The position numbers were made by a program, and so were the translations under genes. Shown in pieces: positions 4,186 to 39,945 of a stretch of 64,000 nucleotides of DNA. Numbering within the stretch: position 1 is the stretch's first letter; every line of letters begins with the position of its first letter. Under the pieces are notes generated by a model. The model ran no database searches. It saw only the letters and a list, made by a program, of their open reading frames with translations, and was not told where the DNA came from. This DNA comes from Planctomycetota bacterium (GTDB lineage: Bacteria > Planctomycetota > UBA1135 > UBA2386): contig CANMWZ010000012.1 in NCBI GenBank assembly GCA_947501605.1, positions 1-64,000 on the forward strand, read 5' to 3'.

Positions 4186-4261
4186 TGGTAGGCCCTGCAG
4201 GACTCGAACCTGCAACCAAGCGGGTATGAGCCGCCGGCTCTAACCATTGAGCTAAGGGCCT
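4186..4261 (-). tRNA. tRNA with CAT anticodon, most likely tRNA-Ile2 (lysidine-modified)
   Basis: Reverse complement AGGCCCTTAGCTCAATGGTTAGAGCCGGCGGCTCATACCCGCTTGGTTGCAGGTTCGAGTCCTGCAGGGCCTACCA; cloverleaf with encoded CCA; C4-G69 and C5-G68 pairs (TilS determinants); lacks initiator features. Confidence 0.9.
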
Positions 4262-35740: not shown

Positions 35741-35817
<77 letters not shown>

Positions 35818-37667: not shown

Positions 37668-37952
37668 TCAGGAAAGTCGCGCGTGGGTGCCGTCGCAGTA
37701 CGGCGCGTTCTGGCTGAGTCCGCACGCACACCACACGACGGTCTTGGGCTCGTCGAACATGACCTTGATGGGCACAACATCCGAGCCGCGGTGCGTTCCA
37801 TCGCAGTAGGGATACTGCGCGCTGCGTTCGCAGCGGCACCACGCGTGCTTCCCGGCCTCGCACCTCGCGACGAACGGGCCCTTTTGCTTGCGCCCGGGCG
37901 GAGGTGTGCCGCTTGGGCGATTGCCAATCGGATTGTCTTCGTCAGCAGACAC
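37668..37952 (-). CDS. Double CDGSH iron-sulfur (NEET/MiNT-like) protein
   Basis: CRCERSAQYPYCDGTH and CACGLSQNAPYCDGTH. Confidence 0.92.
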   Translation of the reverse strand: MSADEDNPIGNRPSGTPPPGRKQKGPFVARCEAGKHAWCRCERSAQYPYCDGTHRGSDVVPIKVMFDEPKTVVWCACGLSQNAPYCDGTHARLS

Positions 37953-37962
37953 GGCCTCACTC

Positions 37963-38583
37963 TCAGCGGAAGCGGCGGATCACGCCGCGCACGACGCCGC
38001 GAATCGTGACTCGACTGACGTAGATGGGCTCCATGCTCGAGTTCGCCGGCTGCAAGCGAATGAGCCCGTTGCGCTCGCGATAGAAGCGCTTGAGCGTTGC
38101 CTCTTCGTCCTCAAGGATCGCGACGACGATGTCGCCATCGTTCGCTGTCTCCCGACGCTCGACCACCACGAGGTCGCCATCGTCGATGTGGTCTTCGATC
38201 ATCGATTTGCCGCGAACGCGCAGCAGGTAGATCGCATCGCCGGTCGGCACGAGTTCAGCGAGACTGATGTCCTCACGATCTTCGAGCGCCTCGATGGGAC
38301 GACCCGCCGCAATGCGACCGAGCAACGGCAAGGTCGGGAGGTTTGCGATGGGCTCCTCTGCTGCGTCGGGGTCGTGAAGGATCGCAACGGCTCGGGCCTT
38401 GGCGCGGTCGCGATAGATTGCACCCTTGCGCGACAGTTGCTTGAGGTGCTCATGGATCGTGATCTTGCTCACGCCTAGAGCTGCCGCGGCCTCATCAAGA
38501 GTCGGTGCGATGCCCTTCTCGCGACGGAAGTCGCGGAAGTAGCGCAGCACACGGATCTGCTTCTCCGTCAGCATTAGCTTCAT
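37963..38583 (-). CDS. lexA: SOS repressor LexA
   Basis: wHTH (LTEKQ...PTLDE), AAG cleavage site, GKSM catalytic Ser, TLKR catalytic Lys; SD GGGAGG. Confidence 0.96.
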   Translation of the reverse strand: MKLMLTEKQIRVLRYFRDFRREKGIAPTLDEAAAALGVSKITIHEHLKQLSRKGAIYRDRAKARAVAILHDPDAAEEPIANLPTLPLLGRIAAGRPIEALEDREDISLAELVPTGDAIYLLRVRGKSMIEDHIDDGDLVVVERRETANDGDIVVAILEDEEATLKRFYRERNGLIRLQPANSSMEPIYVSRVTIRGVVRGVIRRFR

Positions 38584-38600
38584 GTGGAGAACCCTCCCAG

Positions 38601-38616
38601 GTTCGGTTGTCGTTCG
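38601..38616. promoter_or_regulatory. Candidate LexA box (GTTCG-N6-GTTCG) directly upstream of lexA
   Basis: GTTCG GTTGTC GTTCG, 17 bp upstream of the lexA ATG. Confidence 0.7.
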
Positions 38617-38629
38617 TCACCCAACTGGC

Positions 38630-38932
38630 TCATGCGAAGAGGGCCAGCACCAGGAAACCGAGCAGCATGATACAGCTACCAACCAGCTCAACCGTACGAC
38701 CAAGTCGCTGGCGCGCAAATTGATGACCGGCAGGCAGGACTTCGGCGAGGTGCCCCGGCCGCTGAGTCCCCGGCCGAATGGCTGGCTGCAGCCTCATAAC
38801 GGCAAGCATCTTGTGATCGCCTGCTGGCGGAGTAGCGACCTGCCGCTGTCCCTGCGAGCGCGTGGAGGACGCCGGCAGGGCAGTGGGACGGCTGATTGGA
38901 CGGCGGGGGGAGCTGAGGTTGGCGGTGATCAT
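38630..38932 (-). CDS. Small protein with a C-terminal TM anchor; first gene of the lexA operon
   Basis: SD AGGAG 6 nt before the ATG; disordered Pro/Arg/Ser N-terminus and terminal LVGSCIMLLGFLVLALFA. Confidence 0.6.
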   Translation of the reverse strand: MITANLSSPRRPISRPTALPASSTRSQGQRQVATPPAGDHKMLAVMRLQPAIRPGTQRPGHLAEVLPAGHQFARQRLGRTVELVGSCIMLLGFLVLALFA

Positions 38933-38943
38933 CGATGGCTCCT

Positions 38944-39005
38944 GTTCGTGGCAGGTTCGTTCGTCTTTGGTTCGCCTACGTTAGCAACCTGTTCGGGTAA
39001 CACAA
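38944..39005 (-). promoter_or_regulatory. Sigma70-type promoter overlapped and followed by three candidate LexA boxes
   Basis: Minus strand TTGTGT-N16-TAACGT with extended TG; + strand boxes 38944-38959, 38959-38974 and 38980-38995 (GTTCG/GTTAG-N6-GTTCG). Confidence 0.65.
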
Positions 39006-39282
39006 GGCAAAACTTTTGACAGTTCTCCACAGAGTGCGACGGCTGCGGCGGGCCCCAACACCTCGTCCCAGCGGAAGTCGCATGCCTCCCGTCCCAGACT
39101 CGCGGCCACCACTCTTGCCTCGAGGCAGAGCAGCTTCAGAATGCCACATCATCCCTGGCTTGCCTCGGTGGCCCGCGGTCAGGGTCGTCGACAGGCATCT
39201 CCGGTCGTCCCGCTCTCCCGCCCCGTTGTCACGTCGGTCCCGGTCTGGGTCGGTCCCCCGGTCGGCGATGGAAGGTCTCCTG

Positions 39283-39945
39283 ATGCTGGTCCAGTTGTCC
39301 CGTCCGCTCGTCTTCCTCGACTTCGAGACCACGGGCCTCGACACGCAGAACGACCGCATTGTCGAACTCGCGTTCGTCAAGTTGCACCCGGACGGCAGGC
39401 GCGAGCCATTGGTCCAGCGCATCAACCCCGGCATGGAAGTCAGCAAGGGCGCTTCGAAGGTCACCGGCATCCACACGTCCGACGCGTGTGGTCTGTTCTG
39501 GGGACCGCCGCTGAAGAAGGTCGGCGCCAAACTCGCTGAGTTCCTCGTCGGCAGTGACATCGCCGGCTTCAACCAGATCAGCTACGACGTGCCACTCTGG
39601 CTCGCCGAGTGCAAGCGCCACGGGATCGCCTTTGAGCTCGGCGATCGGAAGCAGGTCGATGTGCGCATTCTGTTCAACACCAAGGAGCCGACGTGGGATC
39701 GGTTTCTCATGGGCCCGCGCAATCTCTCAGCCGCCGTGCGCCACTACTGCGGCCGCGAACTCGTCAACGCACACTCCGCCGAGGCCGACTGCAACGCCAC
39801 CGCCGATGTGCTGCTAGCGCAACTCGATCGCTATCCGGATCTACCGCGCGACGTCCCCGGCCTGCACGAGTTCTGCCAGCGCAACCGTCGCGAAGCCCGA
39901 GAAGAAGAAGCGGGCGACAAGAAGAGCGGCAACTCCTTCGCATGA
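39283..39945 (+). CDS. DEDDh 3'-5' exonuclease (DnaQ/epsilon-like)
   Basis: FLDFETTG, GFNQISYDVP and AHSAEADC motifs. Confidence 0.92.
   Translation: MLVQLSRPLVFLDFETTGLDTQNDRIVELAFVKLHPDGRREPLVQRINPGMEVSKGASKVTGIHTSDACGLFWGPPLKKVGAKLAEFLVGSDIAGFNQISYDVPLWLAECKRHGIAFELGDRKQVDVRILFNTKEPTWDRFLMGPRNLSAAVRHYCGRELVNAHSAEADCNATADVLLAQLDRYPDLPRDVPGLHEFCQRNRREAREEEAGDKKSGNSFA

Follow-up and report, generated by a model that had tools for sequence, protein, structure and literature searches.

Direct repeats at a planctomycete lexA locus as probable operators of a widespread Planctomycetota LexA clade, and a small membrane-protein gene at the head of the predicted lexA operon

The lexA locus of a Planctomycetota bacterium (GCA_947501605.1, contig CANMWZ010000012.1, positions 1-64,000; this whole stretch of 64,000 nucleotides is hereafter the window) carries four copies of a short direct repeat, and it raises the question of whether these repeats are the operators of the adjacent LexA and, if so, which genes they control. 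In Verrucomicrobia, the LexA box is the palindrome TGTTC-N4-GAACA. The LexA of Planctomycetes is reported not to recognise the E. coli motif (PMC3108266), and one text on planctomycetes does not mention LexA (PMC12673574). Direct-repeat LexA boxes as such are described as established (PMC8565304; PMC3323433; PMC7739468), the alphaproteobacterial one being GTTC-N7-GTTC (PMC8565304; PMC3323433). In our literature search, no paper was found on a Planctomycetota LexA box or on the small protein considered below, and specialised LexA-motif papers or their supplements could mention one.

On the forward strand, GTTCG-N6-GTTCG occurs exactly at 38601-38616, 38944-38959, and 38959-38974, and a fourth copy with one mismatch, GTTAG-N6-GTTCG, lies at 38980-38995, just where a preliminary description of this DNA had placed them. 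Read on the lexA strand, the repeat is CGAAC-N6-CGAAC, that is, GAAC-N7-GAAC preceded by C. We refer to the copies, all on the minus strand and in the direction of lexA, as box A (38980-38995, CGAAC-N6-CTAAC), box B (38959-38974), box C (38944-38959), and box D (38601-38616), the last three each reading CGAAC-N6-CGAAC. The exact 11-bp period that had been ascribed to all of them holds inside each box and not between boxes, as boxes B and C have base 38959 in common (offset 15) and box A has an offset of 21. The local cluster is far beyond chance: the 684-bp stretch 38584-39267 holds three exact copies, and none of 20,000 dinucleotide shuffles had more than one. By contrast, the word is ordinary elsewhere. 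The window contains 13 matches at up to one mismatch against 9.1 expected, and the exact word occurs 33 times in this genome of 66% GC against 30-56 times for other out-of-frame spacers, i.e., without genome-wide enrichment. The case for an operator therefore rests on position and conservation.

The position of the boxes is tied to a predicted promoter. Aligned lexA promoters show TTG, a 16-bp spacer filled by one box, and then TAACnT (31 of 36 loci), with TTG at other spacers in 0-3 of the 36. Here, the predicted -35 hexamer is TTGTGT (39000-39005, minus strand) and the predicted -10 hexamer is TAACGT (38978-38983, minus strand), TAACnT preceding the small gene described below in 38 of 56 non-redundant loci. 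Box A occupies the spacer and contributes its second half-site to the -10 hexamer. From this alignment, box A appears to sit on an ordinary -35/-10 promoter facing lexA; a promoter scan of the locus returned no consensus promoter, and the call rests on conservation. An overlap between the last repeat and an extended -10 element had been proposed before: the overlap of box A with the -10 hexamer stands and is conserved, while the TG of an extended element appears in only 6 of 38 loci. Box B lies immediately downstream of the predicted transcription start, box C abuts the ribosome-binding site of the small gene (AGGAG, 38939-38943), and box D lies between the stop codon of that gene and the lexA ribosome-binding site (GGGAGG, 38593-38598). 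Box D is also the best match genome-wide for a matrix trained on relatives only. An additional box upstream of the -35 hexamer was found in 16 of 32 loci.

Two further features of this region are recorded as observations in their own right. At 38585-38604, a half-site in inverted orientation comes after the lexA ribosome-binding site (GAAC-N8-GTTC with GGGAG between), which would let the lexA leader fold a short hairpin over that ribosome-binding site, and the layout is similar in several close relatives. A perfect TTGACA at 39017-39022 on the plus strand is oriented towards the divergent exonuclease gene, with the -35 hexamer of the lexA operon at its back.

The gene itself (37963-38583, minus strand) encodes a 206-aa protein with an N-terminal winged helix and an S24 peptidase domain, and it is the sole match in the genome to TIGR00498 (175 bits, cut-off 111). 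The cleavage site A93-G94 and the catalytic residues S127 and K165 are invariant in six of six sequences and align to solved LexA chains, so by its sequence this LexA is intact, and recA is present in the genome. Its nearest named relatives are from Planctomycetota metagenome-assembled genomes, followed by Phycisphaerae and Acidobacteriota.

Conservation at lexA was assessed on the loci returned for 29 of the 53 relatives with a match. In 15 of these 29 relatives, a strict GAAC-N7-GAAC is found no farther than 1500 bp upstream of lexA. When TAAC was allowed as a half-site, because box A (CTAAC) suggests it, strict [GT]AAC-N7-[GT]AAC was found within 900 bp upstream in 21 of 29, against 2-10 at other spacers; the conservation check put forward in the preliminary description thus came out in favour of the motif. 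The second Y-family polymerase gene of this genome (DinB-like) has GTTCG-N6-GTTAG just before its start, and the corresponding polymerase loci of relatives carry a strict site in 15 of 18 cases, against 0-1 at other spacers. At recN, a strict site is present in 4 of 30 relatives' loci, comprising all four in this genus and none of the 26 outside it. From these sequences, the motif consensus is C[G/T]AAC-N6-C[G/T]AAC, i.e., the known GAAC-N7-GAAC geometry with a 5' C.

Such repeats might instead be promoter elements (-10/-35 hexamers or the motif of an ECF sigma factor) or low-complexity AAC-rich leaders. This reading would account for the TAAC half-site inside the -10 hexamer, for a GTTTG at recA that overlaps a TTG, and for the background-level word count in the genome. 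However, boxes B, C, and D lie outside the promoter hexamers, the sites may face either way with respect to transcription, the enrichment at the polymerase is confined to spacer 7, and the targets are SOS genes, and we regard it as highly improbable. Sites that overlap promoter hexamers and occur in both orientations are as expected of a repressor.

The recA promoters call for a looser description of the same repeat. The strict pattern is found in only 1 of 30 relatives, whereas a degenerate form, GTTTG-N6-GT(TC/AA)G, is found in 28 of 30; this form was formulated after inspecting the data, and the -35 element may explain part of its conservation. With a matrix trained without recA, at period 11, 28 of the 30 recA promoters exceed the 95th percentile of the null and 20 exceed the 99th, compared with 11 and 10 at period 12 and at most 7 and 1 at periods 9, 10, and 13. 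The first half-site is fixed as GTTTG, and the second is GTAAG in 15 and exactly GTTCG in 11 of 28 orthologues. The strict pattern thus misses recA, and the motif, as judged from these alignments, tolerates TAAC and other half-sites. The scan of repair genes that had been suggested earlier gives a divided answer: recA is recovered by the degenerate pattern and by the matrix and not by the strict pattern, and two other repair genes are not recovered, as uvrA has a site in 0 of 21 and ssb in 1 of 25 relatives' loci (background 40 of 3571). Both of these genes belong to a loosely conserved SOS core (PMC3323433), from which the present regulon would differ. In this genome, uvrB, ruvA, the other dinB, dnaE, and dnaA also have no site.

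Within the genome, for which 3663 genes were called with a simple purpose-made caller, a matrix built from relatives' lexA sites only ranks lexA first and recN third. The same matrix gives an intergenic excess without spacer specificity, with 13 matches at spacer 7 and 14 at spacer 8. The recA site of this genome is weak out of sample, ranking 251 of 3663 after training on lexA and polymerase sites and 2593 after training on lexA alone, and a rank of 3 requires relatives' recA sites in the training set. Training on all relatives' sites places recN, lexA, recA, and the polymerase as the top four of the genome, a result that is partly circular. Several other matches were set aside. None of 25 relatives has the site that precedes a 268-aa gene here (C8:67901), and the matches at C7:121938 fall, by eye, within an apparent tRNA gene. 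Further matches in this genome, located near dnaA, genes for an aminoacyl-tRNA synthetase, a histidine kinase, and RNase E/G, and others, were not taken as operators.

Some repair genes showed unusual arrangements. About 144 codons into the boxed polymerase gene (contig C85), close to a contig end, the reading frame is lost. The dnaE2 gene, at the end of contig C8, lacks its 5' part, its upstream region being cut by the contig end. The two may form one cassette split by the assembly, and in one relative (G036) a DnaE-like start follows the polymerase. Another relative (G003) has three near-identical polymerase 5' regions within 4.5 kb of contig C369, two of them with altered boxes. The uvrA gene of this genome (C3:101618-107482) encodes a tandem double-length protein of about 1950 aa, as it does in most members of the family.

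We also considered whether the box follows this LexA. A sample of 150 Planctomycetota genomes contains several LexA types, and upstream DNA of lexA and recA was taken for 50 of them: 30 across families from lower-scoring matches, chosen before any sites were inspected, and 20 top-scoring ones. None of the conclusions depends on the unpublished genome G229. A site scoring at least 17 at lexA or recA is present in 15 of 27 genomes within the clade of this LexA, and also in the single genome (G086) that joins the clade in the larger, 124-row tree; of the 22 genomes whose LexA is of another type, none has such a site. The remaining 12 of the 27 in-clade genomes have no strong site at either gene. 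As box and LexA clade share one origin, this co-occurrence is to be counted as one event rather than 49 independent ones; it points to this LexA as the reader of the box. At Y-family polymerase genes of 10 genomes with other LexA types, no site was found in any of 17 loci, so the motif could not be extended to the whole phylum. Within the Phycisphaerae-containing branch, the repeat is present in 17 of 33 loci, against at most 5 at other spacers, several of these loci being near-copies. The box had been regarded as a candidate for one lineage, and it instead follows the LexA clade across many Planctomycetota families, Phycisphaerae included.

SOS-independent DNA-damage regulators exist in bacteria. 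It might be that another damage-responsive regulator, such as a WYL-domain or other winged-helix protein, binds the repeat and that LexA is merely one of its targets, all the more so as LexA canonically binds palindromes and the candidate operator was assigned from sequence. Against this stand the four boxes at lexA itself, which fit autorepression, the association of the box with the LexA clade, and the presence of other conserved words before lexA genes of other types, e.g., GAAC-N4-GTTC in three genomes of one family. In addition, an alphaproteobacterial LexA is reported to bind the same geometry (PMC8565304). We therefore consider a different reader very unlikely, and the repeats very probably are LexA operators of one widespread Planctomycetota LexA clade. 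A direct-repeat LexA box, as first proposed for this locus, is in this way well supported by its conservation at lexA, recA, and the Y-family polymerase and by its co-occurrence with the LexA clade.

The other LexA types came with candidate sites of their own. In the family mentioned above (f35; loci L225, L226, and L228), GAAC-N4-GTTC is a palindrome of the Gram-positive type 45-52 bp before lexA. By eye, a CACA-N3-TGTG-like palindrome is seen before lexA in four loci (L219, L235, L243, and L247) of families f46, f20, and f60; the lexA genes there encode an ST(G)(T/S)VR helix, and the palindrome is a candidate LexA box. Planctomycetota thus hold several unrelated LexA types with differing candidate sites.

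The LexA clade is monophyletic in both of our trees, which are unrooted, with support of 99/96 in the 46-row tree and 95/85 in the 124-row tree. The former tree and the AU tests used 46 of 127 rows, and the latter omitted three long-branch rows. In the 46-row set, monophyly of all Planctomycetota LexA was rejected (p-AU 2e-7), as was a grouping of the clade with Bacillus and Nonomuraea LexA (p-AU 0.007), while a grouping with alphaproteobacterial LexA was not rejected (p-AU 0.197). In the 124-row tree, the clade groups with Acidobacteriota LexA at moderate support (85/86). Because the position of the Alphaproteobacteria shifts between the trees, we claim no donor and no order of events. The preliminary description had taken a direct-repeat box here to imply convergence or lateral transfer within the PVC group. 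Our trees, built without Verrucomicrobiota LexA, do not demonstrate this: the clade is monophyletic and, in the larger tree, groups with Acidobacteriota. On these unrooted trees, convergence is no likelier than a common origin of direct-repeat binding, and the direct-repeat LexA of this clade would then be tied, at moderate support, to Acidobacteriota LexA rather than being a fresh invention.

Comparison with known systems gives the box a known geometry with flanks of its own, and a direct-repeat LexA box alone is of a known kind and modest news. The closest parallel is the alphaproteobacterial box, with the same core half-site, direct orientation, 11-bp period, and boxes at lexA; strict GAAC-N7-GAAC precedes lexA in four of four named alphaproteobacterial loci. 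However, of 130 half-sites here, 115 have C as the preceding base, against G or A for 13 of 14 in Alphaproteobacteria, TAAC is a frequent half-site here (42 of 130), unlike in the alphaproteobacterial box, and the recognition helix reads SKITIHEH here and SKSGIHRL there. The two LexA groups also form separate supported clades, although the AU test given above does not reject a sister relation. The LexA box of Acidobacterium capsulatum is reportedly a direct-repeat motif as well. Acidobacteriota LexA forms the nearest outside group to the host clade in the 124-row tree, and one Terriglobales locus has CGAAC-N6-CGAAC before lexA, as here, but the Acidobacteriota failed as a positive control, with the strict repeat preceding lexA in just 1 of 32 loci. 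In Balneolaeota, an EMSA-tested LexA box is likewise a direct repeat, and direct-repeat recognition by LexA is said to have arisen several times (PMC7739468). The resemblance extends to the regulon, which is small and includes lexA, recA, and translesion polymerases, whereas the Balneolaeota half-site is unrelated in sequence to that of our host. The present results provide an SOS operator that can be tested, together with a compact regulon, in much of a phylum whose LexA motif we did not find described in the literature.

The arrangement suggests how control might work. Through the direct repeat C[G/T]AAC-N6-C[G/T]AAC, LexA would silence a predicted operon of the small gene, lexA, and a CDGSH gene. 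Box A would keep RNA polymerase off the -10 element, boxes B and C would obstruct the transcription start and the leader, and box D would add control directly at lexA. Upon DNA damage, RecA would trigger the self-cleavage of LexA, and a small regulon would be released, comprising the small gene, lexA, the CDGSH gene, recA, the polymerase, and recN, without uvrA and ssb. At recA, the GTTTG half-site is probably fixed because it doubles as the TTG of the -35 element, which would make for a weak, leaky operator.

Boxes A-C stand off from lexA by about 350-410 bp, an interval taken up by a 100-codon gene that the preliminary description had overlooked. This unannotated gene (38630-38932, minus strand) has its own AGGAG abutting box C, and it encodes a protein with a basic Ala/Arg/Ser/Pro-rich N-terminus and one C-terminal hydrophobic helix, identified from hydropathy, that ends at the stop codon. 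By their placement, boxes A-C guard this small membrane-protein gene at the head of the predicted lexA operon. An open reading frame with a terminal hydrophobic helix occurs just before lexA in 30 of 30 loci of the family of this genome (working label f1) and in 16 of 24 loci of sister families, compared with 0 of 14 in the Phycisphaerae-containing branch, 1 of 30 for other LexA types, and 1 of 28 in Acidobacteriota. As background, such helix-ending frames precede 30 of 3543 genes of this genome and none of 77 control loci at recA, recN, and the polymerase. Substitution patterns indicate that the small gene evolves as coding DNA: in the final 30 codons, compared across 56 non-redundant loci, substitutions at the three codon positions number 1098/621/1749, single-base changes are silent in 978 and replacing in 659 cases, and each of the other five frames of the tail has stops in 10-43 of the 56 loci.

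Eight of nine sequences with assigned start codons are in a public protein collection, where the named ones are called "hypothetical protein." A profile of the tail matched 143 representatives, each match ending no more than 4 residues from the C-terminus. Family length ranges from 29 to 214 aa, with a freely variable N-terminus, and within the tail E at -19 (43 of 56), G at -16 (48), and A at -4 (53) are conserved. Pfam gave no family for the full protein or for 52 tails, apart from two weak chance-level matches, and ESM Atlas gave no named match, with a best score of 0.84 and a model pLDDT of 0.44. No second copy of the small gene was found in this genome.

The gene on the other side of lexA encodes a CDGSH iron-sulfur protein (PF09360; 37668-37952, minus strand), begins 10 bp behind lexA, and adjoins it in 60 of 63 loci, which are partly redundant; it is likely the third gene of the lexA operon. 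A CDGSH iron-sulfur gene is an unusual candidate SOS gene. Upstream, a DnaQ-like DEDDh 3'-5' exonuclease gene (39268-39945, plus strand) is a divergent syntenic neighbour, found beside lexA in 46 of the same partly redundant 63 loci. We did not accept it as a LexA target, as all four boxes here are on the lexA side of the intergenic region, away from the exonuclease. A plus-strand open reading frame at 38582-39019 matched no family. One RNA-library contig covers 37638-38776, i.e., the CDGSH gene, lexA, and the 3' half of the small gene, such contigs revealing neither strand nor a single transcript. Contigs of a second RNA study cover 37731-38056 and 38337-38763, and two further runs cover nearly everything; none of this RNA coverage was counted as evidence.

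What the small protein might do is suggested by its setting. A single-helix gene beside lexA is described as a signature of damage-induced division inhibitors (PMC6851548), and FtsW is the reported or predicted target of several SOS division inhibitors (PMC13396833). On the model of SidA, YneA, and SosA, the small protein could be induced by damage and hold back division from the membrane through the septal synthase FtsW, a proposal that we put forward as tentative and rather doubtful. All planctomycetes are stated to have lost ftsZ, and division without FtsZ is an open question (PMC12673574). FtsZ/tubulin was absent from this genome and from all 26 others searched, and SEDS proteins are kept in 26 of 26 genomes. 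Here, an FtsW-like SEDS protein, matching below the curated cut-off, is encoded in the dcw cluster murF-mraY-ftsW-murG-murC, so the common target of inhibitors of the SidA/YneA/SosA type is present. The coordinates of the host FtsW are C4:20908-21978, and those of RodA are C1:86926-88080. With SidA, YneA, SosA, ChiZ, and DivS, the protein shares its small size, its one membrane helix, and a gene beside lexA under LexA boxes. By contrast, it has no sequence match to these inhibitors in Pfam or ESM Atlas, its chain ends with the helix and so lacks an extracellular part and a LysM domain, its gene is upstream of and co-oriented with lexA rather than divergent, and its host has no FtsZ. YneA, for comparison, requires its extracellular LysM domain (PMC13396833).

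The operator reading may equally be right with a different role for the small protein. TisB is a membrane-depolarising dormancy peptide. A TisB-like peptide of this kind, a tether at the membrane, or a relic retained through linkage would suit a protein with one hydrophobic helix, nothing after it, and no LysM or other extracellular domain, with an N-terminus that varies freely, and with a gene that is absent from the Phycisphaerae-containing clade (0 of 14). We lean slightly towards one of these roles, even though the conserved residues of the tail suggest a specific partner and the position of a single-helix gene beside lexA is the known mark of division inhibitors (PMC6851548). If the division brake were nevertheless the case, for which the chances seem modest, the protein would lend itself, as a natural inhibitor, to isolating the FtsZ-independent division machinery. 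As a conserved candidate for a damage-controlled membrane microprotein, it gives a concrete handle on planctomycete division without FtsZ. Elsewhere in the window, tRNA-Met is encoded at 4186-4261 and tRNA-Arg(CCG) at 35741-35817.
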